Virus record (IMG/VR): IMGVR_UViG_3300047554_000527
Span: 8,387-72,386 of that record
Strand: one strand, 5' to 3'
Source: a virus
Taxonomy: Duplodnaviria > Heunggongvirae > Uroviricota > Caudoviricetes
Length of the DNA stretch: 64,000 bases
Shown: positions 11,920 through 63,464 of the stretch, one piece after another
Layout: every line of letters begins with the position of its first letter
Numbering within the stretch: the first letter of the stretch is position 1
Program-made: the position numbers and the translations under genes
Notes under the pieces: model-generated
Databases searched by the model: none
What the model was told of the DNA's origin: nothing
The model's input: the letters and a program-made list of their open reading frames with translations, nothing else

Positions 11920-11944
11920 CAGTTACACTACAATTGGAGCGAAC

Positions 11945-12983: not shown

Positions 12984-13015
12984 CACCCTCTACGGAGGGT
13001 GATCTTATGATGTTT
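12984..13015 (+). terminator. terminator-like hairpin (CACCCTC-tacg-GAGGGTG)
   Basis: perfect 7-bp stem right after stop of 12528..12950; weak U-tract. Confidence 0.3.
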
Positions 13016-14138: not shown

Positions 14139-14238
14139 ACTAACGGCGTTCATCCACTTATCAACTTCGCTATCACCTGCTAACATATAAGGCAGGTAGT
14201 ACCAATATAGGAATAATACTACGGGCCAACTAGCAGGA

Positions 14239-16299: not shown

Positions 16300-16303
16300 C
16301 TAT

Positions 16304-19428: not shown

Positions 19429-19436
19429 TTCACACC

Positions 19437-20219
19437 TTAATTACCAGTGATAATAGTGTATGTATTTCCGCTACCTGCTATAGCAAGATTAACAGTAGTA
19501 TCAATAGTACCACTTTGTGTGATAGTTGTGCTATTGCTAGAACCGGTAATGTTCAATGTAGCATTATGTCCATTGACTCCGCCTCCACTTTGAGTGATGC
19601 TGGTTACGTTAGTTGCTCCATTAGAAGTTAAATTAACTGTGCCTTTTGCACCAGTTAAGTTAAGAGTAGTAGAGTTTCCACCACCACCTGTTTGGTTAAG
19701 AATAACACTAATTTGATCAGCATTAAGAGTTGCTACAACACTGTTGTTAGCGCCACCTGCTGTATCGACTACAAAACTACTGTTAGAACCTAACATGTTT
19801 AAGTTAGCGATAGCACCATCGCCTGTTTGTTCAATATTAACAGTGTTGCTATTAGCTGTACCAGTTTCGGCATTGTTCATGTTGATTGTACCTACAGCAT
19901 TGTTACCTGTAACTTTATAGATTACACTAGTATCAACACCGCCGCTGGCTGTGGCTGTAACAACACCTAAGTTTAAAATGTTGCCGCTACCTATTTGTTC
20001 TACAGTTAATGTAACGTTATCACCTTTAATTTTAGACGGTGTGGTGTTACCTGTACCGGAACCTTGTATTCCTCGAATACGGTTTGATGCACCATCTTGT
20101 GTCATTGTAATAACACCATTGTCGCCTGCTTGATCGACGTAGATGGTATTGTCTGCCGCAAAAGATGACGCAGCAAACAATATCGCTATAACTGCCATAA
20201 CTTTATTCAGCTTCTTCAT
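19437..20219 (-). CDS. secreted curlin-repeat protein (CsgA/CsgB-like amyloid subunit candidate)
   Basis: signal peptide MKKLNKVMAVIAILFAASSFA (start 20219); repeated ITQSGGGVNGHNATLNITGSSNSTTITQSG units; Gly/Asn/Thr/Gln-rich. Confidence 0.55.
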   Translation of the reverse strand: MKKLNKVMAVIAILFAASSFAADNTIYVDQAGDNGVITMTQDGASNRIRGIQGSGTGNTTPSKIKGDNVTLTVEQIGSGNILNLGVVTATASGGVDTSVIYKVTGNNAVGTINMNNAETGTANSNTVNIEQTGDGAIANLNMLGSNSSFVVDTAGGANNSVVATLNADQISVILNQTGGGGNSTTLNLTGAKGTVNLTSNGATNVTSITQSGGGVNGHNATLNITGSSNSTTITQSGTIDTTVNLAIAGSGNTYTIITGN

Positions 20220-20281
20220 ATATACTACCAGTTCTTTTGGAACTGTCTCCTTGTTGGGGGAATTATGTATCATTCCCCGTT

Positions 20282-21193
20282 TTATTTGGTCCTAATTTCT
20301 TTGCTTCCTTCAGCATTTTTTCCGTTGCCGGACTGTTCCGTTGGGGGAGTTGCTTCTGCGGCTCCTTTACTCTCGGTCGTCTTTTGAACCAGCTCATTTT
20401 TATCTCCTTTGTAGTTCCAAAGCCCTTTACGAGCTCCATCTTTAATTAGCTCAACTACTCCGGCTTCGATTGCGGCCTTGACAGCATAAGTGCCCGGCTC
20501 GTTAATCGTTAAACCTGCTTCACCCTCAAACGCTTTAGTTCCCATATCAAAAAACTTCAATGCTGTTACCGCATCAGCACTACTGATGATTGTTTTTTGT
20601 ACGGTTACTGATGTAAGAACTTTACCAGTATTCACGCTAACTGCTCGCAAACTGATAGTAACTACATCCTGACTCCACTGTGTCTGTTTGCCTATTCCAA
20701 AAACTCTGGCTCCGATGCCACCGCTTTTAATAGAGCTATCATACCCAATAATACCGCCTTCTATAATAATCCCTGCAAACTGCATGGGCATTAAAGGTTT
20801 TGCGTTGTTGCCTTCATATGCTTCGCGCATCTGACGGATAATTAATCTTTCTTTAGTTAAGTTGTCAATACCTACACGCTCAACAACATCAAACCAACGA
20901 CCGCCACCTACATCTTGTAGGGCTTTAATCAAGAAGCTTTCCGCCCCTTGTGTTACTGCTGTACTTAAACTAGCAATGTTAGCCTGAGGGCGACGTTGTC
21001 CTGTTAGATCTCTAAAACTATAAACTGCTACACTTACTGGCCTTTCTGCTGCCGGTAATGGAACGGTATCAAATTCTTTCTGCATTACGCTAGAAGGAAT
21101 TGTTGGCATCTCTTCAAGAAGCCCATCTTGCTGTGTTATTGCACAGCCTGTTAATAAACTTGTGATTGCTAGAGTTAATAGTGTCTTTTTCAT
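20282..21193 (-). CDS. csgG: curli production assembly/transport lipoprotein CsgG
   Basis: lipobox LLTGC; extended colinear similarity to E. coli CsgG (...VAVY.F.D.TGQ..., ...A.VMVEGSIIGY.SNVKSGGVGARYFGIG..., ...NEPV..C.M.AIE.GV..LI.DG...GLW). Confidence 0.8.
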   Translation of the reverse strand: MKKTLLTLAITSLLTGCAITQQDGLLEEMPTIPSSVMQKEFDTVPLPAAERPVSVAVYSFRDLTGQRRPQANIASLSTAVTQGAESFLIKALQDVGGGRWFDVVERVGIDNLTKERLIIRQMREAYEGNNAKPLMPMQFAGIIIEGGIIGYDSSIKSGGIGARVFGIGKQTQWSQDVVTISLRAVSVNTGKVLTSVTVQKTIISSADAVTALKFFDMGTKAFEGEAGLTINEPGTYAVKAAIEAGVVELIKDGARKGLWNYKGDKNELVQKTTESKGAAEATPPTEQSGNGKNAEGSKEIRTK

Positions 21194-22806: not shown

Positions 22807-23475
22807 TTATTTACCTATTTCTGGGAACAGCACTTCATCAACGAAATCACGGATAACAGGTTCAGGAACACCCATGGCAATCATGCTACGATAAACATGT
22901 GGGTTTTTCTTTTGATTAATGCAGTAGAAATTTTGACGATCTTTAGAATTGGCAGTGCCCTTGCGATTGACGTTGCTAATATAGTATTCTAGGGTTTTTA
23001 AACCTAGGCTAACAAATTGATCAATTTCACTAGATTCTGTAAGATTGCCGGCAGCTACCATACTAGGGCTAAAGATGTTACTAGCCCACTCAGGCAGCTC
23101 ACGCTTTTTGTTCCACGTGATATCTTTAACTTCGTTAGCAAACCAATCATGCATTGTGTGTTGATTACTAACTAGGCTGAAGTCGTGGAATGCACCTGTG
23201 ATCTTGTTTTTACCGCAGACAGTATCGAACCCCCAAATAGGCGTATCGTCATCAGCATGTGGAAATACTGTAGCGTGTAGAATATAAATTCCGTGGCTTT
23301 CAGTTTTATCTACAATCTCAATGTGTGCTCTACGATAAGTTTCTGCATAATAGACATGATTTTCCCATGTGTATTTTGCATCGTGTTCTGGATTTCTGTG
23401 TAGTGTGCCAGTACGTGCAAATATCTTTTGTATTTCATCTGCACATGCTCGCATCTTTTCCCATACATGACTCAT
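22807..23475 (-). CDS. ferredoxin-dependent bilin reductase (FDBR family; PebB/PebS/PcyX-like), copy 2
   Basis: 222 aa, paralog of upstream FDBR (shared W.NKV...YRR.HI..VD......HC.VFPH......PI.GFD.V.GKNKITGAFHDFS...); ATGA overlap. Confidence 0.65.
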   Translation of the reverse strand: MSHVWEKMRACADEIQKIFARTGTLHRNPEHDAKYTWENHVYYAETYRRAHIEIVDKTESHGIYILHATVFPHADDDTPIWGFDTVCGKNKITGAFHDFSLVSNQHTMHDWFANEVKDITWNKKRELPEWASNIFSPSMVAAGNLTESSEIDQFVSLGLKTLEYYISNVNRKGTANSKDRQNFYCINQKKNPHVYRSMIAMGVPEPVIRDFVDEVLFPEIGK

Positions 23476-24155
23476 TGCGTTTCTCCTATCTTAGGAAAAA
23501 GACACTGCTGTATGAATACCTGCACATCTTCAGGATTAAGCCCTAACGCTGTCATAACCTTGGGAGTGTGCGGATTTAGTCTTTGATTGTCGCAGTAATA
23601 GTCTTGTGCGGACTGTGTATCTACTGCTGTATTGTTTGATAGGCCTACATTATCTAGGTAGTATCTAAGATCGTTAATAGCTGTTAGATACAGTTGATTT
23701 ATTTCTTCAGGATCTTGTACGTTGCCTGCAGAAATCATACTAGGTGTAAAGATACGTTCCGCCCAGTCTGGTAAGCGTCTAACTTTATTCCATTCTAGTT
23801 TTTGTGCAGAATCTGCAAACCAGTCGAGCATGAAGTGTTCGGGATCACCTGCAGGACTAAAGTCATGGAATGCACCTGTAATTTTATTTTTTCCTGCTAC
23901 TACATCAAAACCGAATATAGGTGCAGGATTGTGAGTATGGGGGAACACACAACAATGCATCATCCAGAGACCGCGAGTTTCCCTAGCATCAACGACGTCG
24001 ATGTGTGCTCTCCTATAAAGACTACTGGTCCAAACTTTGTTGTACCAATTGAATCTGTCTAGTCCAGGCTCTTGTATTTCTTGCCCGGTGCTGTTGAACA
24101 GCCTCTCAAATTCTTGCTGAATATCAATCAGCGTTGGCCAAACTAAGTTCGTCAT
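23472..24155 (-). CDS. ferredoxin-dependent bilin reductase (PebA-like), copy 1
   Basis: 227 aa FDBR-fold signature; immediately downstream of heme oxygenase as in cyanobacterial ho1-pebA-pebB clusters. Confidence 0.65.
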   Translation of the reverse strand: MTNLVWPTLIDIQQEFERLFNSTGQEIQEPGLDRFNWYNKVWTSSLYRRAHIDVVDARETRGLWMMHCCVFPHTHNPAPIFGFDVVAGKNKITGAFHDFSPAGDPEHFMLDWFADSAQKLEWNKVRRLPDWAERIFTPSMISAGNVQDPEEINQLYLTAINDLRYYLDNVGLSNNTAVDTQSAQDYYCDNQRLNPHTPKVMTALGLNPEDVQVFIQQCLFPKIGETQ

Positions 24156-24672
24156 TGTAGCTGTTCATAATTTTAATTGCCCAGTCAAAGGCCACGTTTG
24201 CTTCTTCTGCCATGCTGTCGTCTAGCATAGCACGAATTTTTTCTTTAAGGCCTTCGACATCATTAAAATCTAAGTTACGATGAGGAGCATTAATTACTTT
24301 TCTAATCATTTGACCGCCGAACAAGTCTCCCATGTGCCATGTGTAAAGATGTGCGGTAATCTTTGCTGGTTGTCCTACAAGGTCTAGGATATAACGACTG
24401 TAGGCAATAGTCTCAGGACGAAGTCTAGGATAGACCCCGTTATTCATCTCTTTAGCATCAAGGTACAGTTTTAATGCTCGTTCGATTTCTAACATGTCTG
24501 TTGTAAGTCCGGCATCTCTTGCAACAGTTTCGATACTGGCATAGAAGTTAGACTTTTGATAGGTATAGTCTGCCCAAACTTCAATTGGCATGTTTCTTTT
24601 AAACACTGCCTTCATGAATTTAGTTTCTTCTGCGGCTGTATGACTGTCTTTGGTTAGCTCTTTTAAACTCAT
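24124..24672 (-). CDS. heme oxygenase
   Basis: 182 aa; HO-like N-terminal LKE.T...H...E...FMK motif and overall length. Confidence 0.6.
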   Translation of the reverse strand: MSLKELTKDSHTAAEETKFMKAVFKRNMPIEVWADYTYQKSNFYASIETVARDAGLTTDMLEIERALKLYLDAKEMNNGVYPRLRPETIAYSRYILDLVGQPAKITAHLYTWHMGDLFGGQMIRKVINAPHRNLDFNDVEGLKEKIRAMLDDSMAEEANVAFDWAIKIMNSYNDELSLANAD

Positions 24673-25887
24673 TTATTCCTCGTAGCGTTTTAGCACAATG
24701 CAAGCGGAACGCCCGCTAAATGCAAAGTTATTCTTTATAGCGTACTTAGCATTGATAGCAGATGCTTCTGTAGGAATTGACATACCCGAATCGATAGGAG
24801 TTTTTAGATTGATAGTAGGCGGCGTTGTTTGTGTTTTTAAAGCCATTAGCGTATAGATAGTTTCAATAATGCCGCTAGCCGCTAATGTGTGTCCTATCTG
24901 CGCTTTATTCGCTACCATAGTTTTTTCAGGAAACAATTCTCGCATAGCATAGAATTCTATATCATCTCCTGCCTGAGTCCCTGTTGCATGAGCGTTAATA
25001 TATCCGATGTCGGATGTTGTAATTCCTGCAGACTTTAATGCTCTAGCAACTGAGGTTTTGGCAGCAATTCCATCTTTATCAGGACTGGTGTCGTGATGTC
25101 CTGCGCTAGCAACTCCTGATCCTACGATTAACCCATATATTTTTGCACCCCTAGCTTTTGCTTTTTCTAAAGGCTCAATAACTAAACAGCCTGCGCCCTC
25201 TCCTGCATTAAATCCTGCTCGATTTTGGTCAAAGGGTGTTGCAGGTTCGTTGCTCAGTGCTCCGAGATTTTGAAAATAATAACATTGATATGCTTCAATC
25301 GGCATATCTGCGCCACCGACTACAACTGCATCAATATCTGGCTCTGTTTCTAAAGTTCTTAACGCATAATCTATACTTAGAAGTCCGGTAGAACAGGCAG
25401 CGTTAATACCAGTAGATAATCCATTAAACTCAAACATTCGAGAAATAGTACCGCTAAGGTAATCTAATGTTGATTGAATTACCTGTCTAGGTAATATTCT
25501 TTCTCGGCCGTCTTCTAATGCTCGTGTAAGGTACCCTCTACTTACTGTATTTCCGCCTGTAGTGCTATAAACAACTGAAACATTTTTACTTTCGATGCCG
25601 CTATCTTTAACAGCATCTTCTACAGATCGTATTCCTAATTTAATGCAAGGATCCCAATGCTGGGCGATTCCACCATAGGCCATTTCTTCATAGATAGGAA
25701 TAGGTGCCGGAGCACCTATTTTTACTGTAAGACTTTTATGTGTTTTCGGAAACTTTTTAGGATTGTCTTCTGGCCAGGAAATTTCTTTAATAGCAGTTTG
25801 TCCTGCTAGTAAATTTGTCCAATTTTCTGCTAGTGTTTCGCCTAAGCCATTTATAATACCAATACCTGTTACTGCGTATTGTTTCAT
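24673..25887 (-). CDS. beta-ketoacyl-ACP synthase (FabF/FabB-type KAS)
   Basis: active-site Cys (INAACSTGL), His-His pair (NAHATGT, QIGHTLAASG), 404 aa. Confidence 0.7.
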   Translation of the reverse strand: MKQYAVTGIGIINGLGETLAENWTNLLAGQTAIKEISWPEDNPKKFPKTHKSLTVKIGAPAPIPIYEEMAYGGIAQHWDPCIKLGIRSVEDAVKDSGIESKNVSVVYSTTGGNTVSRGYLTRALEDGRERILPRQVIQSTLDYLSGTISRMFEFNGLSTGINAACSTGLLSIDYALRTLETEPDIDAVVVGGADMPIEAYQCYYFQNLGALSNEPATPFDQNRAGFNAGEGAGCLVIEPLEKAKARGAKIYGLIVGSGVASAGHHDTSPDKDGIAAKTSVARALKSAGITTSDIGYINAHATGTQAGDDIEFYAMRELFPEKTMVANKAQIGHTLAASGIIETIYTLMALKTQTTPPTINLKTPIDSGMSIPTEASAINAKYAIKNNFAFSGRSACIVLKRYEE

Positions 25888-26192
25888 TCTTCCTCTACTC
25901 TGATAACCAAAGGATATCCGTTTTGTCGGGCTAACATAGTTCCTTCGACGCCTTTTTGTTCGGCAATTTCGTGCGGATAAATTCCTGCAATGCCTGCACC
26001 TTCATTATGAACCTGCATAGTGACTGTTTTTGCACTGGCTTCATTATGTTTAAAAACGTGCATTAGTAGAGCAATGACAAAATCCATAGGAGTGTGGTCG
26101 TCATTCTGTAGGACAACTTTATAAAGTCCGGGGCTTAAGATATCAAAATCATTTTCAGTTTCGACGATATCTTTAGTTTTAGTTTCTGCCAT
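25884..26192 (-). CDS. clpS: ATP-dependent Clp protease adaptor ClpS
   Basis: YKVVLQNDDHTPMDFVIALLMHVF... matches ClpS core. Confidence 0.7.
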   Translation of the reverse strand: MAETKTKDIVETENDFDILSPGLYKVVLQNDDHTPMDFVIALLMHVFKHNEASAKTVTMQVHNEGAGIAGIYPHEIAEQKGVEGTMLARQNGYPLVIRVEEE

Positions 26193-36482: not shown

Positions 36483-37421
36483 TCAAGTATCGTCAAAAAG
36501 ATTTATAACATTTTTTGTTTTTTTGGGCTTTTTAGCTTTTGGTTTAGCGTCCGGATTTCGAATAGCTTCCAAAACGCCCTGTTCGTACTTGTCGTCCGGT
36601 GTAGTTTGGACACCTTCCGGAAGTTGTGTGCTCAATTGCTTGTTGGCTGGAGTAACAGTAGATTCTACAGTTTGGTTAATTCGAGTAGTGGCAATGTCAA
36701 AGTATTCTTTGGTCATTTCTACGCCAATGAAGTTTCTTCCGGTAAGTTTGGCACTCACGCCGCAACTGCCCGAACCCATGGTAAAATCTAGTACAGTATC
36801 GCCCGGATTGCTATAGGTCATGATAAGCCAATTTAAGACGTTAGTCGGCTTCTGTGTTGGATGCACGGTCTGTTGAGCACTGAAATTGCGGCTAGCATGA
36901 AGAATACTTTTTGGATAACGAGTTCCGTGATTCTCCCCGCCTAGATAGACTTTGCCGTTGTTACCAAAACCGTATCCGTGACTGTTCTTGCCTGTGCCAT
37001 AACCTTTTTCTTTGTCCTTGGCTTCTCGCTTGTAGGCTTCACCTTCTTCCATAATAGGATTGTATGTGCCGCCACTTTCTTTGCTAAAGACCATAATGTT
37101 CTCATGGACTTTCTGAGGACGATATTTGGCTAGACCGGGACTACCGCACTTATTCTTGTTCCAAATAAGCTCGTGTCGGAACCAATCAATTTTACTAGCA
37201 ATAACAAGGCTAGTAAATGGCTGACTGCCGAAGATAATTATGTTGGCTTTTGGCTTGCAGATTCTATCTAGCTCTGCCCACATCTTAGTAAAGTCTAGTG
37301 TCTTATCCCACTCAATAGTAGTTGTACCGTATGGAGGATCAACACAGACCATATCTACACTTTTGTCTGCAATTTTTGCAAACGCTTCAAAACAAGATTC
37401 ATTAAACAGTGTTATATTCAT
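36483..37421 (-). CDS. DNA N6-adenine (or N4-cytosine) methyltransferase, beta-class (DPPY then SAM motif)
   Basis: VCVDPPYGTT (motif IV) followed later by DFTMGSGSCGVSA (motif I); start 37421 chosen (4 nt after upstream stop), longer ORF to 37598 would overlap. Confidence 0.7.
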   Translation of the reverse strand: MNITLFNESCFEAFAKIADKSVDMVCVDPPYGTTTIEWDKTLDFTKMWAELDRICKPKANIIIFGSQPFTSLVIASKIDWFRHELIWNKNKCGSPGLAKYRPQKVHENIMVFSKESGGTYNPIMEEGEAYKREAKDKEKGYGTGKNSHGYGFGNNGKVYLGGENHGTRYPKSILHASRNFSAQQTVHPTQKPTNVLNWLIMTYSNPGDTVLDFTMGSGSCGVSAKLTGRNFIGVEMTKEYFDIATTRINQTVESTVTPANKQLSTQLPEGVQTTPDDKYEQGVLEAIRNPDAKPKAKKPKKTKNVINLFDDT

Positions 37422-37425
37422 TGTG

Positions 37426-38205
37426 TTATTTACTTTTTGTTTTTGTGCTCTTTTCGATCTCAGGCTCGGCTTTGAAGTTAGCCTTTCGATAAGCAATGGC
37501 CGTTTTCCACTGCTCGGCTTTGAGTGCCCAGCATCGGAACGCACCGTCTGTGATAACATTATAAAAAACTTCTTCAAAGGTTTTCTCGCCGGGCGCACAA
37601 TCGTGTTCTTTATTCCAAACGATTTGCAAGTTATTGGTAGGATTTTTAAACCAATGAGTGATTTGTTTTACACCGCGTACCATAACATGACTAAAGTCTT
37701 TTTTATCTAAACTAAGAAACCAGTAATCGCGAGTAGTTTCTTTTTTATGTTTAATAATCAACTCTGCAAATTTTGTATCGCTGATCTTATTAGTAATTTT
37801 AAGTTTTTCGTACTGGTCGAGAGTTAGATCAGTAAGAGCCCACAATATCCCTAACTTACTAAAGGCATTGTCCGAACTACCGATAGAAGTTTTGATATTT
37901 ACAGCATGAGCAGAACCATCGTAGTCGATAACTTCCATATCCATAAAACTACGAAGCACACCTTCTTTAATACGGTCTTTAAATTTAGGCTGATTTTTCA
38001 ACCATGCAATAATCTTATCTTCATCATTTTTACTATTAACTCTCCCCTCGCTGTTCTCATTAACAGCCTTTAGGTTTGACTTTTTAAGTGCTTCGACAAT
38101 TTCGTTTAAGATTTGAGGGGCTTTTGGGTTGCTCATATTATTCCTGATGGTCTGCTGAGTCGATTTGTTCTTGCCAGAATTGGCGAGCTTCGGCTTCGTT
38201 GTCAA
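37426..38205 (-). CDS. hypothetical protein adjacent to MTase (candidate restriction endonuclease or anti-restriction partner)
   Basis: 259 aa, no recognised motif; position immediately upstream of MTase in same operon. Confidence 0.35.
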   Translation of the reverse strand: MTTKPKLANSGKNKSTQQTIRNNMSNPKAPQILNEIVEALKKSNLKAVNENSEGRVNSKNDEDKIIAWLKNQPKFKDRIKEGVLRSFMDMEVIDYDGSAHAVNIKTSIGSSDNAFSKLGILWALTDLTLDQYEKLKITNKISDTKFAELIIKHKKETTRDYWFLSLDKKDFSHVMVRGVKQITHWFKNPTNNLQIVWNKEHDCAPGEKTFEEVFYNVITDGAFRCWALKAEQWKTAIAYRKANFKAEPEIEKSTKTKSK

Positions 38206-39558: not shown

Positions 39559-40956
39559 TTATTTGCGAGCGTTAGCTCGAACTTCTTCGAAGGTAATCTC
39601 TTTTACAAGACGACCATCGCGATAGACTTCAACCATTGCCGATGTCCATCCACCGATGCCTTTGTCAGTCCAACCAGTAGGTGCAGTAACACCACTAGCA
39701 AACTCGCCGCCGCTGGTCCAGAGTTGAACACGACCTGCTTTGGACTTCTTGCCCGAATCGGTAACTGGGTCTTTTTGCACATCGATCCACTCGCCGTTGA
39801 TCTCTGCGGAACTGCACTTCATTGCGAATTTTTGGGTGTCTCGATCGACTTGCTGTAGAAGGGCGCCGCCCATGCCGAAAGCAATGTTGTCTGCACTCCA
39901 ACCATTAGCCATAAAGGCCCCCAATATACTGCGGATAGTGAGTTCATTAACCCCATCACCTTGGATAAGTCGGACATTGTTAAGGACTTTAAATCCTTTT
40001 GCGTTTGTTGTGTAACCAAATTTTTCTCCTAAGATTTCAACCAATCGACGATTAACTTCAACAGGATCACCGGAGTCAGGACGAATAACAACGGTAGCGC
40101 CACTATCAATAACAAGCTGGCGGAGATCTTCCCCCCAAAGTTTTGATGCCGCATTGTAAATATCGTAACTGTCACTAACCACGGCAACAATGCTGCCTGC
40201 TCTACCAAACTGACGAACCATGTTTTCATATGCTTTTACCTCGTTGTCTCGTCCCCAACTAGTAATTGTACTGTGCTCTGCGGCAGGGATAGAGAAACCC
40301 GCAACCCCAGCATTGTAAAATTCGCGAGCATACAAAACACCAGAAATAGTATCACTGCCCATGAAGTTAATAAGGTGTGATGCACCTCCGATTGCCGCTG
40401 ATTCAAGGCTAGAAACACCACGAGCACCGAAATCGTGCAACTTAAAATCAATGAGGCTAGGGTCACCTGTTTTCTCCAAGTAGTCAAGGATCACTTCGCG
40501 GATCTTGTGCGACTGTGTTGCCACAGTAGTTGGATACCAAATGGCACGAAGCAGAGCAGTTTCGAGCCAGGTAGTTAGCCAGAAGCATTCTGGGTCTGTG
40601 TTTTCAATTGTAGCAAGGACGTTTTTAACAGGTACAACGGTTCCCTCGGGGACAGCTCGAATGACAACTGGGAGGTATCCATTGTGCTTGTCAAGGATGT
40701 ACTGCCATCCTGCTCGGTTGAAGGGCTCACCGTGTGCGGTAAGGATTTCGTCAGCCACGTCAATGTCTGACTGTGTGATTGGCCCCAGTAGGTATTCCTT
40801 GATAAAAGCCTGTAGTCCGAAGAATACTGTTCTATCGTAACGCCCACCCCGGCTTTCAATATACGAATAAACACCAGTAGTTCCTGCCGGGTATTGTTTG
40901 AACATGCTAACTTTGTAGCTGTCTGTGTTCAGAATGATGTTGCTTGCTAATTTCAT
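39559..40956 (-). CDS. nadV: nicotinamide phosphoribosyltransferase (NadV/NAMPT)
   Basis: N-terminal MKLASNIILNTDSYKVSMFKQYP signature, 465 aa. Confidence 0.8.
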   Translation of the reverse strand: MKLASNIILNTDSYKVSMFKQYPAGTTGVYSYIESRGGRYDRTVFFGLQAFIKEYLLGPITQSDIDVADEILTAHGEPFNRAGWQYILDKHNGYLPVVIRAVPEGTVVPVKNVLATIENTDPECFWLTTWLETALLRAIWYPTTVATQSHKIREVILDYLEKTGDPSLIDFKLHDFGARGVSSLESAAIGGASHLINFMGSDTISGVLYAREFYNAGVAGFSIPAAEHSTITSWGRDNEVKAYENMVRQFGRAGSIVAVVSDSYDIYNAASKLWGEDLRQLVIDSGATVVIRPDSGDPVEVNRRLVEILGEKFGYTTNAKGFKVLNNVRLIQGDGVNELTIRSILGAFMANGWSADNIAFGMGGALLQQVDRDTQKFAMKCSSAEINGEWIDVQKDPVTDSGKKSKAGRVQLWTSGGEFASGVTAPTGWTDKGIGGWTSAMVEVYRDGRLVKEITFEEVRANARK

Positions 40957-42087: not shown

Positions 42088-43107
42088 TTAGGCACCTAAG
42101 AAGTGTTGCAGGATTTCGTAATGGTCTTCAAAACACTCTTCGCTCTTTACTTCGGCAATAGGAACCCAACGTGCTTTCTCAGCATCGTCTAGACCTTTTA
42201 CACGAGGCAGTTCCCCATCAGGCAACTGGATATAAAATGCGTGAGTAATAGTACGACCACGAGCGCTACGATCAACAGCATCAAAAACCTTAGAACGCTG
42301 GATATTTCCTCGGAGGACTGGCGCCGGGACTTTGATACCGGTTTCTTCGCGGAGTTCGCGGATTGCGGCATCTTCGACTGATTTGTCGGTGTTGGCATTT
42401 ACGAAACCTCCAGGAAGTGCCCACAGACCTTTACCGGGTTCTGAACGGCGTTTAATCATAAGTACGTGCCCGCTTTGAATCACTACTGCATCGGCAGTAG
42501 AGAAGATTGGAGGATAAGGTAATGATGCATACTGTTTCTTGTAATTGGCAACAAATTCACGCTCCTTGATGATTTGTTCATATTCAGATGTGGCACGGAA
42601 CTGTTCCAAGAATTCAAAAGTAGTTTCGGGAACAACACCTTTAATGAACTTCATATTAACATCGGACTTGAAGTACAGGTCGCGAATATTAACAGCGCTC
42701 AACGGTTCAATTTCTTCCACGTTAATGTACTCCCATTGAGGGAACATGTCGAGGTAGAACGAACTGTCATCTTTCTTATGACCGATGATAGCATCTTTAG
42801 TTCCAAGGCAACGGTACTTGCTGTGGATACCTTGAACACGAACTGCCCATGCTTGGTCATTGTAGATAGTGTCAATGTTGGGTTCAACATACACACGCAT
42901 ACTGAGCCCAGCAGTAGCCGCACGAATCATTCGACTGCGTTCATCGAACGTAAATGGGTTTTTATAAGTACGCGGTTGATTAGCACTACCGACAACTACA
43001 ACCAACTGATCAGTTAGTGCGGTGCATCGCTTGATGATCTCAAGGTGTGCTGAGTGTAAGGGCTGGAAACGCCCGATGAGCATAATGGTGCCATATGGCT
43101 TAGACAT
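42088..43107 (-). CDS. bifunctional NMN adenylyltransferase / Nudix (ADP-ribose pyrophosphatase) NadM-Nudix (NatV-like)
   Basis: IGRFQPLHSAH (HxGH-type nucleotidyltransferase) plus Nudix box GGFVNANTDKSVEDAAIRELREETGI; start ATG 43107 after AAGGA SD. Confidence 0.75.
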   Translation of the reverse strand: MSKPYGTIMLIGRFQPLHSAHLEIIKRCTALTDQLVVVVGSANQPRTYKNPFTFDERSRMIRAATAGLSMRVYVEPNIDTIYNDQAWAVRVQGIHSKYRCLGTKDAIIGHKKDDSSFYLDMFPQWEYINVEEIEPLSAVNIRDLYFKSDVNMKFIKGVVPETTFEFLEQFRATSEYEQIIKEREFVANYKKQYASLPYPPIFSTADAVVIQSGHVLMIKRRSEPGKGLWALPGGFVNANTDKSVEDAAIRELREETGIKVPAPVLRGNIQRSKVFDAVDRSARGRTITHAFYIQLPDGELPRVKGLDDAEKARWVPIAEVKSEECFEDHYEILQHFLGA

Positions 43108-43209
43108 AGAAAAATCCTTTCTATAATTGTTAGCGCGGAGTCTATCTCTTTGCTGTATGTATTTATTATACAGGAAACATGCCCACCTGTAAAGTGGGCA
43201 TTTGTCCAA

Positions 43210-45526: not shown

Positions 45527-46414
45527 TTAAATTTTAGTTGATACTGCATCGTCTTTAGAGTCGATTCGCAAGACTGTTGATCCGGAAACATCAGACTTAT
45601 TCTTCCTGGTTGATCGCTTGGATTTGATACGCTCACTGCTATCAATAACATTATCCACATTGTCGTACTCCTTGGTCCATGTTACTAGTTCCCAGCGACC
45701 GTCCCAGTGTTCTACAAGTGCTGTGCATGACTCTACCCAGTCGCCGTCGTTCATGTAGATCACACCGTCTATCTCTTTAATTTCTGCATGATGTATGTGT
45801 CCGCAGATAACACCATCAAACCCACGCTTCTTGCAGTAGCCTGCTAGATTCTGTTCGAACTTAAACATAAAATCTACAGCCTTTTTAACTTTGTGTTTTA
45901 GGTATTTGCTAAGACTCCAGTAACCAAATCCAAATTTGTGACGAATCCAGTTAAACTTGCCATTTAGCATTAGTACAAAATCGTATGCCTTATCGCCTAG
46001 AAAACTCAGCCAGGGTGCTAGTCTAGTAATACCGTCAAAAAGATCACCATGAACTACAAGATAATGCTTACCGTCAGCACCTATATGTTCTATTTGATTA
46101 TGTATTTCTACATGACCAAAACTGAAACCATAAGGTATCATTGGTCTTAGGAATTCGTCGTGATTGCCTGCTATATAAACAACTCTAGTACCACGTTTAG
46201 CATGACCTAAAATTCGTCGAACTACATTAGTGTGACTTTGTTTCCATCGCCATTTATTTTGTTGTATTCTCCAGGCATCAATAATATCTCCGATGAGATA
46301 TAAGGTATCGCAGGTATTGTGTTTGAGAAAGTTGTTTAACTTTTCCGCTTGACTATCTTTAGTGCCTAAATGCACGTCACTAATAAAAATAGAGCGATAA
46401 GTCTTGGCTGTCAT
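45527..46414 (-). CDS. calcineurin-like metallophosphoesterase (LpxH-like)
   Basis: motifs SDVHLG, GDIID, GNHDE. Confidence 0.55.
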   Translation of the reverse strand: MTAKTYRSIFISDVHLGTKDSQAEKLNNFLKHNTCDTLYLIGDIIDAWRIQQNKWRWKQSHTNVVRRILGHAKRGTRVVYIAGNHDEFLRPMIPYGFSFGHVEIHNQIEHIGADGKHYLVVHGDLFDGITRLAPWLSFLGDKAYDFVLMLNGKFNWIRHKFGFGYWSLSKYLKHKVKKAVDFMFKFEQNLAGYCKKRGFDGVICGHIHHAEIKEIDGVIYMNDGDWVESCTALVEHWDGRWELVTWTKEYDNVDNVIDSSERIKSKRSTRKNKSDVSGSTVLRIDSKDDAVSTKI

Positions 46415-48327: not shown

Positions 48328-48345
48328 ATTATCTCCTTGTTAATT

Positions 48346-48420
48346 GGTGCGCTAGGCGGGAATCGAACCCGCGATTCAGAGTTTTAGAGGCTCCTGCTAT
48401 GCCACTTAGCTACTAACGCA
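48346..48420 (-). tRNA. tRNA with anticodon CUA (amber/UAG-reading suppressor tRNA candidate)
   Basis: perfect T-arm GCGGG-TTCGATT-CCCGC, 7-bp acceptor GCGTTAG/CTAGCGC, encoded CCA, A73; anticodon stem GGAG/CUCU(+C-A) with 7-nt loop C-U-CUA-A-A. Confidence 0.5.
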
Positions 48421-52415: not shown

Positions 52416-52603
52416 CTCAACAGAAACATCATATGATCCCGACGATCAGCAAAATAGATTTTAGGATGCCTATAGTGCCATCGGCGGCCGTCTCCTGGGC
52501 CAAACTTAACCTGTAGCCATTCGAACACTTCGTCAGGTACCCTGACATTATTCAGTTCGACTACATAGTATTCGTGATTGATAATTACACCTGGATGTAT
52601 CAT
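52406..52603 (-). CDS. member of paralogous small-protein family
   Basis: ends ...FEWLQVKFGPGDGRRWHYRHPKIYFADRRDHMMFLLRWS. Confidence 0.5.
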   Translation of the reverse strand: MIHPGVIINHEYYVVELNNVRVPDEVFEWLQVKFGPGDGRRWHYRHPKIYFADRRDHMMFLLRWS

Positions 52604-53355
52604 AACTTAGTTAATATTTCTTTCATTTGACGGTATCGGTCTAGTTTTGTTCTAGCACCTAACACAACTACAATGTACCGCTGGGCATTCTTTTCGACCA
52701 TCATGCCCAGGCACCAACCAGCCGGAGTAGTTAGACCAGTTTTAGTAAGTGTAATATTATCAAACTCGAACAACAGCTCTTGGTTGGTATTTTGAAGTTC
52801 GATCTTTCTTATTTTGTTTTTAATGATCTGTTGAAATGACGCTTCTTTTTTAGTTGTAGTTTGTTTGATCAAGGGATAAGTGGCGCTGGCAATCAGCAGT
52901 CTCTTAACGCCAAGAATAGTAGTAACATTCCTACTATCTAGACCGCTGGCATCGCTAAAGTTTGCACTAGGCATTTCTAATAGACGTGCTTTGGCATTCA
53001 TTGCTTCAATAAATGCAGTTCTGCCTCCGGGATAATCTTCTGCTAGCGTTTCTGCGGCGTTGTTATCACTGCGAACTAACATAGCCTGTAGCAGTTCTCC
53101 ACGTGTCCATGTTCCATGTGGAAGAACTCCCCATACTTTAGCTACGGATTTTAAAGGTCGATCTAAATCAGTGCTGTAGTCAAGTGCCACCATTGCAGTC
53201 ATTAGTTTAGTAAGACTGGCAATAGGCCGTACTTGATCTACATTTTCTTGTATTAGAGCATGTCCTGTATCTGTGTTGTATAGCAGGACGCTCTGCGGAA
53301 TTGGTTTAGACCAAGCAGAGCCACATAACAGAATAAGGGCAAGGAACCGAAACAT
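52600..53355 (-). CDS. D-alanyl-D-alanine carboxypeptidase (peptidase S11, PBP5/6-like) with signal peptide
   Basis: SxxK (IASLTKLMT), SxN (RSDNNAAE), KTG (LTKTGLT) motifs in correct order. Confidence 0.65.
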   Translation of the reverse strand: MFRFLALILLCGSAWSKPIPQSVLLYNTDTGHALIQENVDQVRPIASLTKLMTAMVALDYSTDLDRPLKSVAKVWGVLPHGTWTRGELLQAMLVRSDNNAAETLAEDYPGGRTAFIEAMNAKARLLEMPSANFSDASGLDSRNVTTILGVKRLLIASATYPLIKQTTTKKEASFQQIIKNKIRKIELQNTNQELLFEFDNITLTKTGLTTPAGWCLGMMVEKNAQRYIVVVLGARTKLDRYRQMKEILTKL

Positions 53356-54704: not shown

Positions 54705-55727
54705 TCAAGCAGGATTTCTTATCCAAATTATTTCGTGTGGTGTGTATTTGAATAATGGTTGATTGGGAGCAGGATGAACTGGCTTTACATTAATTGGACA
54801 CCTATCTCCAATCCGTTCTTTAAATTTTTTATAAACTGATTGGGCTGTGTCCAAATTACCAGGATCAACCATAATACGAACATTTACCCAATTTGAACCA
54901 CGACCTACAATAGCTTGCTCAACACTATCCAAAAACTTTTCAACTCCTTGTTCCTTAACATAATTTAGGTGTATGCTAAAACAGACATCGCTGACTGCGG
55001 CCAACTCACAATAATATTCTGCATTTCTACTACCGTTGGTTGTAGTAATAGACCGATGTCCTATGCTGTATAGATATTGTACAAAGGGCAGATAATCTTT
55101 ATAAACAGTTAATTCCCCGCCAAGCATACTGAATTTCACTCTAGCTCCATGTATCCAATATTGATCAATACTATGATAGGCAGACACCATTTGTTCTAAT
55201 GTTTTGTGTGCTTCGTGATTGTTGTGATCAGATTCTGGACAATACCAGCAATCAAAATTGCACCTTCTTCCCAATGCCCATGTTATAGTTTTAAAGTTAG
55301 TATCATTCGTTGATATTACCATATCGGCTTTTACTGTGTCGTGCTGACTATCTAACTTAAACTCTTCAACTATTCCATCTTTAAAAAATTCAACAACCTG
55401 CTCTTGTTGCTTAACTTTAGGGATTTCCATGTCTGCACCACAAGTACAAAGGTTCTTAGAACAAACAATCCATTCTTTATTAGATTTTAAATCATGTGTT
55501 ATTGTATAGATGTTTCCTATTATGCCGCCTTCTCTACAGACAGCGTTGTAGATATTTCCGTCGTAGTCGATATACAGAGAATTAAGTCCTGCTGAACAAA
55601 ACCAGTCTTTCCAATGACTTAGACCTTTTCCTAACATGCTTTCTACAGTATGCAGAGCATAGTTTTTATTTTGATCTATTAGGACAATATTTTTGCCTGT
55701 AAAGGGTATGCTCTTAGAAGTTGTCAT
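54705..55727 (-). CDS. radical SAM domain protein
   Basis: CNFDCWYC (Cx3Cx2C) cluster; start taken at MTTSKSIPF (55727) to avoid overlap with divergent ALAS gene; alternative 55823. Confidence 0.5.
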   Translation of the reverse strand: MTTSKSIPFTGKNIVLIDQNKNYALHTVESMLGKGLSHWKDWFCSAGLNSLYIDYDGNIYNAVCREGGIIGNIYTITHDLKSNKEWIVCSKNLCTCGADMEIPKVKQQEQVVEFFKDGIVEEFKLDSQHDTVKADMVISTNDTNFKTITWALGRRCNFDCWYCPESDHNNHEAHKTLEQMVSAYHSIDQYWIHGARVKFSMLGGELTVYKDYLPFVQYLYSIGHRSITTTNGSRNAEYYCELAAVSDVCFSIHLNYVKEQGVEKFLDSVEQAIVGRGSNWVNVRIMVDPGNLDTAQSVYKKFKERIGDRCPINVKPVHPAPNQPLFKYTPHEIIWIRNPA

Positions 55728-55758
55728 AGTAATATTTATTTGGTTAAATACACACATT

Positions 55759-56952
55759 ATGATTAAACCTAAGTCACAAGACGCTATTGCCGCTAGCTTA
55801 GAAAAACTTAAAACTGAAGGCAACTATAGGGTTTTCACCGACATTCTTCGTGAGCGTGGTGAGTTCCCTAAAGCTGTTTATTACGGCAAATACAATATTA
55901 AACATATCACCAATTGGTGTAGCAACGACTATCTAGGCATGGGACAACACAAAGTTGTTCTAGATGCTATGCATACCGCACTAGATACGGCAGGTGCAGG
56001 ATCCGGAGGCACTCGAAACATTTCCGGCACGACACACTATCATGTAGCCCTAGAATGGGAATTGGCCAAGCTTCACGACAAGACCAGTGCTTTATTATTC
56101 ACTAGTGGTTATGTTGCCAATCAAGCAACATTAAGTATCTTAGGTCGTATGATTCCCGGAGCACACTATATCAGTGATGCTAATAATCACAATAGTATGA
56201 TTGTAGGAATGAAGTCAGCACAGTGTCCTATCACAGTGTGGAAACATAACGATCTAGCACACTTGAGAGAAATACTATCAGCATTAGATTCGTCGGCACA
56301 ACCTATTATTGCCATGGAAGGTGTGTATAGTATGGATGGCGATAAAGGTTTAATCAGCGACGTTTGCGAAATTGCTCGTTTGTACGGCGCTATGGTCTAT
56401 GTTGATGAAGTACATGCTGTAGGCTTATACGGTACAAGAGGTGCTGGTGTAGCAGAAGAACAACGTTGCATCGACGGAGTGGATGTATTTCAAGGCACCC
56501 TGGCCAAAGCCTATGGAGTACAGGGCGGGTACATTGCCGCTGGCAGAGACTTAGTCGATATGGTTCGCAGTTATGCACAGGGATTTATTTTCAGTACTAG
56601 TATGAGTCCTGTACTGTGTGCAGGTGCGCTGGCCAGCGTAAAGTATGTCAGTGATCATCCTGAGCTACGTGATCGTATTTTTACAGTGGCGCAACAGACT
56701 AAGGAACACTTGTTGTCCAACGGCATTGATGTTCTAGAAGGCAATACACATATTGTACCTATTATGGTACGTGATGCTAAAAAATGTAAGATGATCAGTG
56801 ATTGGCTGCTAGAAGAACGTGCTATCTATCTACAGCCTATTAACTATCCAACAGTACCTTGGGGCACCGAACGACTTCGCGCTACTCCATCGCCTAACCA
56901 CACAGAAGCAGACATAGATTATTTGACAAGAAGTCTTAAGGAGATATTATGA
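55759..56952 (+). CDS. 5-aminolevulinate synthase (alpha-oxoamine synthase family, ALAS/HemA-like)
   Basis: start MIKPKSQDAIAASLEKLKTEGNYRVFTDILRERGEFPKA...WCSNDYLGMGQH and DEVHAVGLYGTRGAGVAE...GTLAKAYG closely track Rhodobacter HemA; PLP-lysine context. Confidence 0.7.
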   Translation: MIKPKSQDAIAASLEKLKTEGNYRVFTDILRERGEFPKAVYYGKYNIKHITNWCSNDYLGMGQHKVVLDAMHTALDTAGAGSGGTRNISGTTHYHVALEWELAKLHDKTSALLFTSGYVANQATLSILGRMIPGAHYISDANNHNSMIVGMKSAQCPITVWKHNDLAHLREILSALDSSAQPIIAMEGVYSMDGDKGLISDVCEIARLYGAMVYVDEVHAVGLYGTRGAGVAEEQRCIDGVDVFQGTLAKAYGVQGGYIAAGRDLVDMVRSYAQGFIFSTSMSPVLCAGALASVKYVSDHPELRDRIFTVAQQTKEHLLSNGIDVLEGNTHIVPIMVRDAKKCKMISDWLLEERAIYLQPINYPTVPWGTERLRATPSPNHTEADIDYLTRSLKEIL

Positions 56953-57368
56953 ACAAGATTAAAAAAGCGTTTTGGGTTGCTCTAGGATTCCTATTCTTAG
57001 GCATAGCTTATATTGGCGTTGTAACGCCCGGGATCCCCTGGAGCACACCTACAGTTATTGCCGCATTCTGTTTTGCCAAAGGTAGCGAGCGTTGGCACAA
57101 CTGGATCATGAATCACAAGCTGTTCGGTCCGTTCCTCAGCAACTGGGGAGAGAAGCGTGTGTTTCCGACTAAAGCCAAGTGGGCTATGTTTATTACCATG
57201 GACTGTAGCTTGATTATTATTTGGCTCACTACCGGCAACTGGAAAGCTGTAGTGGGAACAGGCATCTTTATGATGATGTGTGCAGTATGGGCTTGGCGCT
57301 ATCCGGGTAGCGTAGAAGAATGGAAACGCCGTGTAGATAACGGCTTAAAGGTCGGCTGGTTCAAGTAA
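56949..57368 (+). CDS. YbaN/DUF454-family inner membrane protein
   Basis: N-terminus MNKIKKAFWVALGFLFLGIAYIGVVTPGIP... typical of DUF454. Confidence 0.55.
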   Translation: MNKIKKAFWVALGFLFLGIAYIGVVTPGIPWSTPTVIAAFCFAKGSERWHNWIMNHKLFGPFLSNWGEKRVFPTKAKWAMFITMDCSLIIIWLTTGNWKAVVGTGIFMMMCAVWAWRYPGSVEEWKRRVDNGLKVGWFK

Positions 57369-60202: not shown

Positions 60203-60569
60203 AATGTACCTCTAAAAATTCTGTAATGTTATTTACTGATCGTTGATTGATGTAACTCATTAATGAACGAAAGTTCTCGTCCTTGGCACTATACCAAACA
60301 TTATGCTTGCTCAGTATGTAGCTAGTCAGCCACTTAGTAAAGTCGCTGTCGTTGTCGCAGTTCAAATAAACTCCCTTTGAAACTGCAAGGGCATGTAATA
60401 ACCATGACATGTTATTTTCGCCCTGGTAGTAGTATAGGTTTAACGGATCTACAGTGTGCTCCGCAAACCAACGGCTAGAAGCTTCTTGTTCTTCTTCTGA
60501 TATATTCATAAACAGGATACTGTTGTTTCCGTTTTCAAAAATATCAGGAGGAGTAATCAATGTTATCAT
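60195..60569 (-). CDS. hypothetical protein
   Basis: 124-aa ORF overlapping clpX start. Confidence 0.35.
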   Translation of the reverse strand: MITLITPPDIFENGNNSILFMNISEEEQEASSRWFAEHTVDPLNLYYYQGENNMSWLLHALAVSKGVYLNCDNDSDFTKWLTSYILSKHNVWYSAKDENFRSLMSYINQRSVNNITEFLEVHFG

Positions 60570-61936
60570 TGTTTCTTCGAAGCCTGTTCCATGTATTCTT
60601 CTTCGCTGATCCTAGTGCTTTCGCTAAGACGATTCCATAGACTGTTCGGGTTTTGCTCTTCGTTTTGAATGTAGTCGTTTAATTGTTTAAACTCAGACGC
60701 CGAATACGTATCATTGGCAACTTTAATAATTCCGTTGTCACTGCTATATCCATGCACCTTAACATCGTCAGATAACTTTCTAGCTCTTAGTGCTAGTTTA
60801 AGCTCATCGTTCTCTTGTTGCAAGCGATTTACAGTACCTTCGAGCGCATCAATAAGCTCTGCTTCAACCAAATACTCTTTCTTTTCCTCGGGTGCAGGTG
60901 CAGGCTCTGGTTTATAAACCATTGGCTCTAGACCTTCGAAGTGTGTAAATCCGTTGTTAAGATAGGGATGTTGCTCTAGAATAGATTCTGTGACAGTGGC
61001 TGTGCTGACTACATCAGATTCCTTTTCTGGGCTGTCACCCTCCGCAATTGGTGTTATTTCTTCGTATGTAGGGAAGAGGTCATCTTCTGGAGCAAGCTCT
61101 TCAACAGTAGGTTTTTCTCCTACATCTGCTACATACGGATCTGGCGTATATTCTTCTTGTTCTCTAAGCTTCTGGAATGTAATTTGGCTGGCCAACAATA
61201 GGATAACAGCCATTGGATCAAACACAACTACAATAAGAATAATAACCCACGTGACTGCTTTCTCTAATACATTGGCATCTGTATTGTCGCCGTAGATAAA
61301 TGCCGCTATGTACTTTACTGGACCAACCTCTGCTTCCACCTTGCGTACTTCAGCGGCGATGGGTGCCCTCTCCTCACTAAGTTTGGCAATAACTTTCTGT
61401 TCGGCTGTAATCTCAGAAAGTAATCTAGTGCGTTCTTTGGCCTGCCCCCTACGTAGCGCAACTGCCTTGTCCGCACCTTTTTCGTCTTGACTTCGACCCA
61501 TAACTTGGTCCACAGCCTCATCCATTTGTTTGAGTGCTTTGCGATTAGCATCTATATTGTCCTTTGCTACTTTAATTTTCTCGTCGTATATCGCTATTTT
61601 AGAAAGTGCATCGCCACTGACAAGACTCTGGTCACTGTGTGCTTTACTTAGAAAGCCAAAGATGCCCATGCTGGTAATCAGCATAAGAGTAGCGATAGCA
61701 GTTAATAGGTATATCTTAATAGTCCAGGGAGAAATTTCCCAGTTCTGTTTTAACCATACAGTGGCTACTAATTTACCCACGCCTAGTGCAATTCCCATGA
61801 TAACGATAGGGAGAAACGCAGTTGGGAAAATGGCGGTAAGTCCTACAATACTGTAGAACTCTGCCACCGCCGAAATCAATAATCCGCTAAAAAGTGTTAG
61901 ATAGGCAATTAGTCTTTCTGTTCTTGTGTTAGTCAT
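60566..61936 (-). CDS. hypothetical multi-pass membrane protein with central coiled coil
   Basis: 3-4 N-terminal TM helices, charged helical region, further TM segment. Confidence 0.4.
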   Translation of the reverse strand: MTNTRTERLIAYLTLFSGLLISAVAEFYSIVGLTAIFPTAFLPIVIMGIALGVGKLVATVWLKQNWEISPWTIKIYLLTAIATLMLITSMGIFGFLSKAHSDQSLVSGDALSKIAIYDEKIKVAKDNIDANRKALKQMDEAVDQVMGRSQDEKGADKAVALRRGQAKERTRLLSEITAEQKVIAKLSEERAPIAAEVRKVEAEVGPVKYIAAFIYGDNTDANVLEKAVTWVIILIVVVFDPMAVILLLASQITFQKLREQEEYTPDPYVADVGEKPTVEELAPEDDLFPTYEEITPIAEGDSPEKESDVVSTATVTESILEQHPYLNNGFTHFEGLEPMVYKPEPAPAPEEKKEYLVEAELIDALEGTVNRLQQENDELKLALRARKLSDDVKVHGYSSDNGIIKVANDTYSASEFKQLNDYIQNEEQNPNSLWNRLSESTRISEEEYMEQASKKQ

Positions 61937-62747: not shown

Positions 62748-63464
62748 ATGGAGTTATTATTTGATAATTGTAGAGGATTTATCTGTTCTATTCTGGACTA
62801 CGAAAATGTCTTGAAAATTTACAAGTCTAGATCTCATATACACGGAACCTTAAGAACTATTAAATCCGATGAATTATTTGAAAAATACTTAACTGAAGTG
62901 CTGTTAGGTAATGTCGAAAATTGTTATGTATTGGGTGCAGAAAATGTAACTACAAAAGAACTAGTTTCTTATTCAATAGTTTCGTTTCCAAAAACTAGTC
63001 CTTTTGGATTTATAATTTCTGCAGGAACAATACCTCCGTCGTCTGCATTAACTAATCGAGCACACGCAGGTGGTATTTCTTTACTAAGATTAGGAGTACT
63101 TCTAGGAAAAGAAAAAGGATATTTTGATATTTTCTGTAGTGTTAAATTAAGTTCGTATCTTCCACTGTGTAAAATGTTCAATGCATCTGAAAAATTGACT
63201 ACTAATATAAGCTATTGGATGATGCATAAAGTAGTTTATCCAAATGATCAATTAGTTACACCGATTGAAAAAGTATTACTAGGTCATAATGTACTTAAAA
63301 GAAAATACCCTATCGCTATTATTCAAATGTCAATAAAAGAAGAATTTAGAATAGAGTATTATAAAAAACATTTTACTGTTTCCGAAGAAACAATTAAAAA
63401 ATGTACGGTTCCGAATTATGCCTGTTCTACTTCGACAATAACATCACTGGCAACTAATTCTTGA
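62748..63464 (+). CDS. hypothetical protein (AT-rich, opposite strand to surrounding block)
   Basis: 238-aa ORF with visibly lower GC than neighbours. Confidence 0.35.
   Translation: MELLFDNCRGFICSILDYENVLKIYKSRSHIHGTLRTIKSDELFEKYLTEVLLGNVENCYVLGAENVTTKELVSYSIVSFPKTSPFGFIISAGTIPPSSALTNRAHAGGISLLRLGVLLGKEKGYFDIFCSVKLSSYLPLCKMFNASEKLTTNISYWMMHKVVYPNDQLVTPIEKVLLGHNVLKRKYPIAIIQMSIKEEFRIEYYKKHFTVSEETIKKCTVPNYACSTSTITSLATNS

Follow-up and report, generated by a model that had tools for sequence, protein, structure and literature searches.

The subject of this study is a gene for 5-aminolevulinate synthase (ALAS; EC 2.3.1.37) in a stretch of 64,000 nucleotides, hereafter the window, from a virus of the Caudoviricetes (IMG/VR record IMGVR_UViG_3300047554_000527, positions 8,387 to 72,386). 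Judged by its sequence, the gene encodes a bona fide ALAS, and the evidence taken as a whole makes a functional phage ALAS (vAlaS) very probable. The protein belongs to the ALAS family, has an intact active site and falls into a phage-specific clade, and the gene is embedded in a phage context. It is an additional member of a published phage family, and the finding is therefore correct but not new: ALAS was first listed in large freshwater phages by Chen et al. (2020; bioRxiv 10.1101/2020.02.13.942896), and the family, named valaS, was described on marine and freshwater phage contigs and experimentally validated by Wegner et al. (2024; Nat Commun 15:8783, PMC11480375). A preliminary description of this DNA, which regarded ALAS as a rare phage auxiliary metabolic gene, overlooks this family. 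A search of the literature after Wegner et al. 2024 for phage ALAS yielded nothing beyond that paper and its preprint.

55759–56952, plus strand: valaS, 5-aminolevulinate synthase of 397 amino acids (aa), with Lys250 as the lysine forming the Schiff base with pyridoxal phosphate (PLP)

Assignment to the ALAS family

Along its length the open reading frame (ORF) had been likened to the Rhodobacter HemA/ALAS, and it is indeed 54 % identical to the ALAS of Rhodobacter capsulatus over residues 10–392; the peptide motifs given in support (WCSNDYLGMGQH, DEVHAVGLYGTRGAGV and GTLAKAYG) are all found in the translation. The NCBIfam equivalog model of ALAS (TIGR01821) matches residues 9–396 with 535.9 bits, which is 197 bits over its curated cutoff of 338.55. 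The models of the sister families remain below theirs, with 301.8 bits for BioF (cutoff 426.45), 301.2 bits for Kbl (cutoff 460) and at most 235 bits for serine palmitoyltransferase (SPT; cutoffs of at least 500). A ranking of PDB sequences leads to the same assignment: the top five matches are all ALAS, headed by the R. capsulatus enzyme (2bwn; 54 % identity over 383 residues, 431 bits, E = 2e-128) and including 7x98 (422 bits), human ALAS2 (348 bits) and the yeast enzyme (326 bits), whereas structures of Kbl, 8-amino-7-oxononanoate synthase (AONS) and SPT reach 209 bits or less.

In the HMMER alignment with 2bwn the residues R24, N56, T85, N87, H144, S191, D216, H219, T247, K250, S279, T280, T365 and R374 are conserved. 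K250, H144, D216 and H219 align to R. capsulatus K248, H142, D214 and H217, of which we take Lys248 to be the Schiff-base lysine and the other three to be placed around PLP; Thr245, Ser277 and Thr278 of the same enzyme are presumably phosphate ligands. All 15 phage and all 18 bacterial ALAS have the lysine and the His/Asp/His residues unchanged. The glycine carboxylate is presumably bound in R. capsulatus by Asn54 and Arg374 and the succinyl carboxylate by Arg21, Thr83 and Asn85, the counterparts of R24, T85 and N87 in the window; the roles of the succinyl-CoA residues are said to come from work of Astner et al. in 2005. The positions of T85 and N87 discriminate between the families: every one of the 33 ALAS has Thr/Asn there, Kbl has Val/Phe and BioF has either Ser/His or Ser/Leu.

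The phylogeny was calculated by a simple method, neighbour-joining with Kimura distances and 100 bootstraps, from 36 sequences (15 phage ALAS, 18 cellular ALAS, the Salmonella Kbl and two BioF). The window protein is found within the ALAS clade with a support of 100/100, with Kbl and BioF outside, and the phage ALAS form a monophyletic subclade (99/100) with a core clade supported by 100/100.

These data also decide against a different alpha-oxoamine synthase, BioF, Kbl, SPT or a CqsA-like enzyme, which could have been mistaken for ALAS. Such enzymes share with ALAS the fold, the Pfam family PF00155, the PLP-binding residues with the lysine and the general Claisen-type condensation chemistry; the BioF and Kbl models still reach about 300 bits on the window protein, and its sole homologs within deposited phage records are BioF or Kbl with 26–36 % identity. 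However, the BioF and Kbl scores are 125–160 bits short of their cutoffs, the ALAS structures lead those of Kbl and AONS by more than 200 bits, the succinyl-binding pair Thr85 and Asn87 is specific to ALAS and replaced by other residues at these recognition positions in the sister families, and the tree puts the window protein and its Kbl and BioF relatives into separate clades. A confusion with one of these enzymes is thus extremely improbable and effectively already refuted. The ALAS call of the preliminary description is borne out by the model cutoffs, the PDB ranking, the discriminating residues and the phylogeny alike. The alignment which it proposed as a check, made here with ALAS, Kbl and BioF sequences, finds the ALAS-specific Thr85/Asn87 and the PLP lysine 250 in place, and a position among AONS or Kbl, named there as evidence against the call, is not what the tree gives.

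Within the published family valaS is found alone, in a hemO-pcyA/X-valaS cassette or in a 'broken cassette' (Wegner et al. 2024). The vAlaS of phage CB_2 complements an Escherichia coli auxotroph for 5-aminolevulinate (5-ALA, ALA) and its enzyme activity was shown; the ferredoxin-dependent bilin reductase (FDBR) of CB_2 yields phycocyanobilin, which assembles into phytochrome, and three-gene cassettes were described (PMC11480375). The window enzyme is 74.6 % identical to the CB_2 vAlaS (296/397 residues), a comparison made with the protein of the IMG/VR locus L019 (401 aa), which is identical to the CB_2 vAlaS in each of the six blocks retrieved. Supplementary Data 5 of the same paper holds sequences visibly close to the window ALAS, and one entry of this alignment, GROS21-1_SAMEA9560623_UViG_0005, shares about 87 % identity with it across the 338 residues that were retrieved. 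The gene has the properties of the viral AlaS clade: it clusters with phage sequences, being 75–91 % identical to those of viral contigs against 57 % for the best cellular homolog, lies in a phage genome with a broken cassette and has lost the residues of heme feedback.

Gene boundaries, phage origin and upstream motif

The ORF at 55759–56952 is a real gene. Its frame is open on the plus strand until the TGA at 56950–56952 and begins, as called mechanically, with a TTG at 55693. The ATG at 55759 is preferred because length and N-terminus then agree with nearly all homologs, and it is also consistent with an invariant TAAATA motif upstream; from this start the protein begins with MIKPKSQDAIAASLEKLKTEGNYRVF (MIKPKSQD...). 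With a GC content of 43.6 % and 35.7 % at third codon positions (GC3), valaS equals the genes of the window (41.3 ± 3.1 % and 36.1 ± 6.7 %), which argues for a long residence in the phage.

The window is a T4-like region of a large environmental phage. It encodes an RIIA protein (phrog_612, 432 bits; best match Pseudomonas phage PA5oct, 32 %), an array of 18 tRNAs and one further tRNA, NAMPT, an NMNAT-Nudix protein, ClpX, ClpS, ribosomal protein S21 and an Rv2179c-like exonuclease. ALAS homologs with 57–91 % identity and conserved flanking genes exist on 28 viral contigs of IMG/VR, of which some exceed 200 kb, and metagenome contigs of up to 378 kb have the same valaS neighbourhood. The NCBI metagenome contig L122 (GCA_013573015.1) matches the window with 96.5 % DNA identity along some 11 kb, and its valaS protein is the same (100 %). 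The closest cellular ALAS are only 50–57 % identical and nearly all alphaproteobacterial (one genome per species, 185,579 bacterial and archaeal species). Among 50,697 deposited phage records megablast found no match to positions 40–64 kb of the window, so that a cultured relative is unavailable; tblastn of the ALAS against the same records returned only BioF/Kbl, mostly from mislabelled bacterial contigs, and for the heme oxygenase of the window this set has a single cultured-phage relative, that of Pelagibacter phage Mosig (31 %).

Could valaS belong to a bacterial host, the contig being chimeric, mis-binned or from the flank of a prophage? Several of the matched 'phage' database records are really bacterial contigs, and one top genome-contig match is an acidobacterial metagenome-assembled genome (L032). 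However, genes of the phage lie on both sides of valaS (RIIA, NAMPT, ClpX, S21, the Rv2179c-like exonuclease and the tRNA array), its synteny recurs on at least 30 independent viral contigs of up to 378 kb, its composition resembles that of the phage and the recurrent TAAATA motif of the phage precedes it; moreover, none of the 185,579 species has an ALAS homolog more than 57 % identical. A host origin is accordingly most improbable and valaS is phage-encoded, as the preliminary description had placed it. A cyanophage reading was rejected, since the heme oxygenase of the window matches no cyanophage heme oxygenase at E ≤ 1e-5. The preliminary description contrasted ALAS with the C5 route of the cyanobacteria; this contrast has no bearing here, as the window gives no sign of a cyanophage.

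55745–55750, plus strand: TAAATA motif, 8 nucleotides (nt) before the valaS ATG; putative T4-late-type promoter core or translation-initiation element

TAAATA stands 5–9 nt ahead of the valaS ATG in 14/14 aligned loci, regardless of the upstream gene. The hexamer is infrequent in the window, with 37 copies on both strands, yet 12 of 93 other ORFs have one within 40 nt upstream of their ATG, where about one is expected; in 10 of these the distance is 4–7 nt. Examples are the ORFs at 3300–3929 (−), 13419–14138 (+), 14239–16296 (−), 45527–46414 (−), 60566–61936 (−) and 62748–63464 (+). The motif resembles what we take to be the core of the T4 late promoter, TATAAATA, and may act either in transcription, as a T4-late-type promoter core, or in the initiation of translation. 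It is so near to the ATG that, as a promoter, it would yield transcripts almost without a leader. A Shine-Dalgarno sequence was not found ahead of valaS, nor was a structured RNA of Rfam near the locus.

A sigma70 promoter was considered for valaS and rejected. In most loci (alignment A2) a strong consensus sigma70-type sequence, TTGACA-N17-TGTATAAT, occurs on the minus strand 10–40 nt upstream of the gene (L003–L005, L009, L012, L014, L020, L021, L025, L029 and L031), but it faces away from valaS toward upstream leftward genes. It is absent in the window and in L001, where a radical SAM gene occupies its place. A promoter scan also gave a match at 56923–56950, inside valaS and just ahead of the following gene, which is a consensus match only.

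Proposed function and associated genes

In the mechanism proposed here vAlaS, which belongs to the PLP-dependent alpha-oxoamine synthases, would form a homodimer like its bacterial counterpart and is predicted to condense glycine and succinyl-CoA to 5-aminolevulinate, CoA and CO2. Glycine would form an external aldimine with the PLP held by Lys250, its carboxylate being bound by Asn56 and Arg374 and that of the succinyl group by Arg24, Thr85 and Asn87. Made during infection, the enzyme alone would lead to the universal precursor of tetrapyrroles, independently of the ALA synthesis regulated by the host. The committed precursor of heme, chlorophyll and B12 could in this way be secured by a phage with one reaction, irrespective of which ALA pathway the host has and how it is regulated.

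Feedback inhibition by heme is reported to involve His342 and Cys400 in the R. capsulatus enzyme, and one or both residues are lost in 'many' vAlaS (PMC11480375). The window ALAS has Lys at position 342 and stops at residue 397 without a C-terminal Cys; since both equivalents are missing, the enzyme is probably not shut off by heme.

The second half of the pathway is represented by genes about 31 kb away from valaS, forming the distal part of a 'broken cassette' at 22807–24672 on the minus strand:

24124–24672, minus strand: heme oxygenase (HO; PF01126, 49 bits)
23472–24155, minus strand: FDBR 1, PcyA/PcyX-like (PF05996, 59.6 bits; PcyA model NF002760, 82.9 bits, cutoff 206)
22807–23475, minus strand: FDBR 2 (PF05996, 56.3 bits; NF002760, 85 bits)

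The two FDBRs are tandem paralogs with a pairwise identity of 41 %, both nearest to PcyA among the NCBIfam models although under its cutoff; among the related loci only L003 and L004 have a second FDBR. The preliminary description had noticed an HO/FDBR module elsewhere in the window, and also its statement that one phage encodes entry and exit steps of the tetrapyrrole pathway agrees with the ALAS, HO and FDBR genes located here. Together these enzymes would allow the phage to push the flux of the pathway and to convert heme to bilins, i.e. to control both ends of tetrapyrrole metabolism, a point already made and tested by Wegner et al. (2024).

An ALAS-derived enzyme might have a role in the virocell other than heme supply, either mainly feeding the HO and the bilin reductases, whose bilin may then serve a phytochrome-like or bilin-binding protein or the release of iron, or over-producing ALA and porphyrins to some other end. 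This finds some support in the fact that valaS is accompanied by HO and one or two FDBRs in the window and, at distances of up to 10 kb, in 14 of 31 related loci, in the two diverged FDBRs of the window and in the three-gene cassettes with phytochrome assembly of the CB_2 product mentioned above. On the other hand, many valaS loci are without nearby HO or FDBR genes, the way from ALA to heme still requires seven or more host enzymes and a bilin-binding protein was not identified in the window. We regard such a role as possible, at rather long odds; it concerns the physiological purpose and not the chemistry of the enzyme and is compatible with a functional ALAS.

Several points weigh against a functional, deregulated enzyme of use to the phage. 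The absence of His342 is weak evidence for deregulation, because this residue is found in just 3 of the 18 bacterial ALAS sampled. The activity of the window enzyme is presumed from that of its CB_2 homolog (74.6 % identical), and the promoter of valaS and the timing of its expression are putative. The HO/FDBR genes are far from valaS, and co-regulation is not required. Finally, the physiological pay-off is speculative. Regarding the benefit, which we infer, heme-dependent respiration, the sparing of Glu-tRNA in hosts with a C5 pathway and the feeding of HO and FDBR were posed as hypotheses by Wegner et al. (PMC11480375).

Directly downstream of valaS follows a gene of the DUF454/YbaN family:

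56938–56943, plus strand: AAGGAG, Shine-Dalgarno sequence of the DUF454 gene within the 3′ end of valaS (read from sequence)
56949–57368, plus strand: DUF454/YbaN-family small membrane protein, 139 aa (PF04304, 99.4 bits), with about four hydrophobic helices (read from sequence)

The AAGGAG ends 5 nt before the ATG at 56949, which overlaps the TGA of valaS (ATGA); this arrangement suggests that the two genes would be co-transcribed and translationally coupled. Of 31 phage loci, 21 have DUF454 directly downstream of valaS, four have it within 600 bp and two elsewhere in the locus, and four, among them the CB_2-like L019, lack it (the locus set of this side observation comprises L001–L031 and L115–L121). 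Three of the four loci with a distance of up to 600 bp have ALAS of 57–62 % identity and a different arrangement. The surroundings (±6 kb) of 80 bacterial ALAS genes contained no DUF454 by tblastn and profile HMM (E ≤ 1), indicating that a cellular operon was not the source of the pair. DUF454 is never mentioned in the main text of Wegner et al. 2024 or in the 11 supplements checked. His50 and Asn55-His56 of the DUF454 protein are conserved. The phage proteins end with a tail, YPGSxEE..GWFK, which is not present in the two bacterial homologs aligned, and the GC3 of the gene (0.55) is about 2.8 standard deviations over the mean of the window.

Members of the DUF454 family are connected with iron and heme in several bacteria. 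E. coli ybaN is part of the core Fur regulon, the Avibacterium DUF454 is induced upon iron restriction and DUF454 was found together with hemophore loci of the type 11 secretion system (T11SS); on an Acinetobacter contig ybaN lies directly downstream of a heme oxygenase in a heme-uptake cluster (TonB receptor/NMB0313-like/TonB/HO). Conceivable roles of the phage protein are the transport of ALA, porphyrin or heme out of or into the cell, their sequestration, or the anchoring of the pathway to the membrane. That the pair is kept across loci with 57–62 % ALAS identity and rearranged gene order may speak for a partnership, as may the lack of DUF454 beside the bacterial ALAS genes and the iron and heme connections of the family. 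Against it stand the related large phages that have DUF454 genes 71–74 % identical without valaS nearby, as well as the four valaS loci without DUF454; since each gene is found alone, the adjacency may reflect inherited synteny or shared ancestry only. A functional partnership of DUF454 with valaS in tetrapyrrole or iron handling is therefore unlikely, but if it is true the phage module would be the first functional handle on this uncharacterised, iron/heme-associated family.

Other genes of the window and comparison with known systems

On the other side valaS is abutted by a divergently oriented gene, whose start lies 31 bp from the valaS ATG:

54705–55727, minus strand: radical SAM gene, likely start ATG at 55727 (MTTSKS)

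Its product has a CNFDCWYC motif and belongs to an orphan family of 54 homologs, all metagenomic; matches to generic radical SAM models are weak (34 bits or less) and no homolog was found in the PDB (best E = 0.07). The ORF translates into 372 aa, and a Cys-rich segment in its N-terminal part (residues ~74–128) corresponds to the C-terminal portion of the STM4011 radical SAM family model, pointing to an unusual order of domains. A tetrapyrrole enzyme of the HemN, BchE or Ahb type was rejected in view of the weak generic matches, the missing PDB homolog and the adjacency, which is not conserved. Among the related loci the gene stands next to valaS in none but the closest ones (L001, L002, L018 and L122–L124) and is absent at the others. 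Its abutting, divergent position was thus recognised correctly in the preliminary description, whereas the conserved valaS module implied by it is restricted to this sub-lineage, and the gene is probably outside the module.

Furthermore, the window is rich in auxiliary genes (3990–21193 and 24673–47549). The following features were assigned in the window:

5456–9602: sugar-nucleotide enzymes
10618–11271: class II aldolase
11238–11897: AhpC/TSA peroxiredoxin
13419–14138: fatty-acid desaturase
14239–16299: CHASE2-adenylate/guanylate cyclase
20282–21193: CsgG-like curli secretion component
24673–25887: FabF-like ketoacyl synthase
25884–26192: ClpS
36483–37598: DNA methylase
39559–40956: NAMPT
42088–43209: NMNAT-Nudix
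52600–53355: S11 D-Ala-D-Ala carboxypeptidase

A marginal Rfam match to the L31-Firmicutes ribosomal leader at 14434–14462 (−) (33.5 bits, gathering threshold 33.3) lies inside the cyclase ORF and is probably due to chance. One tRNA (48345–48419, minus strand; Rfam, 62 bits) has the anticodon CUA and would read amber codons. The stops of 76 non-overlapping ORFs of at least 80 aa are 43 TAA, 33 TGA and no TAG; the trinucleotide TAG itself is not depleted in the window. The CUA tRNA and the lack of TAG stops fit a recoding of TAG elsewhere in the genome or an avoidance of TAG driven by the suppressor.

Compared with the ALAS/HemA of R. capsulatus (PDB 2BWN, 2BWO, 2BWP), the window enzyme is of the same length class and shares all contacts to PLP, glycine and succinyl-CoA; it differs in the exchange of His342 to Lys, in a chain which stops before Cys400, in being encoded by a phage and in its AT-rich codon usage. 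A cellular parallel is the hemO-pcyA-alaS island of Bradyrhizobium sp. ORS278 (cited in PMC11480375), in which ALAS, heme oxygenase and a PcyA-type reductase are likewise combined in one genome. This island is contiguous and phytochrome-adjacent, whereas in the window 31 kb separate the genes and a phytochrome was not found.

The closest known system is the vAlaS of Wegner et al. (2024), which belongs to the same enzyme family and phage-specific clade, has the catalytic lysine likewise at position 250, lacks His342 and Cys400 too and also occurs in the 'broken cassette' arrangement with hemO and FDBR elsewhere on the contig. Unlike the single FDBR of that account, the window genome has two tandem paralogs, and its valaS is coupled to DUF454, which the CB_2-like locus L019 does not have within 10 kb; the radical SAM gene abutting valaS likewise sets the sub-lineage of the window apart from the valaS phages described there. 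The DUF454 coupling, the second FDBR paralog, the TAAATA motif and the absence of TAG stops together with a CUA-anticodon tRNA are not contained in Wegner et al. (2024), and the leads that remain from the window are the valaS-DUF454 coupling, the duplicated FDBR and the avoidance of TAG stops beside the CUA tRNA.

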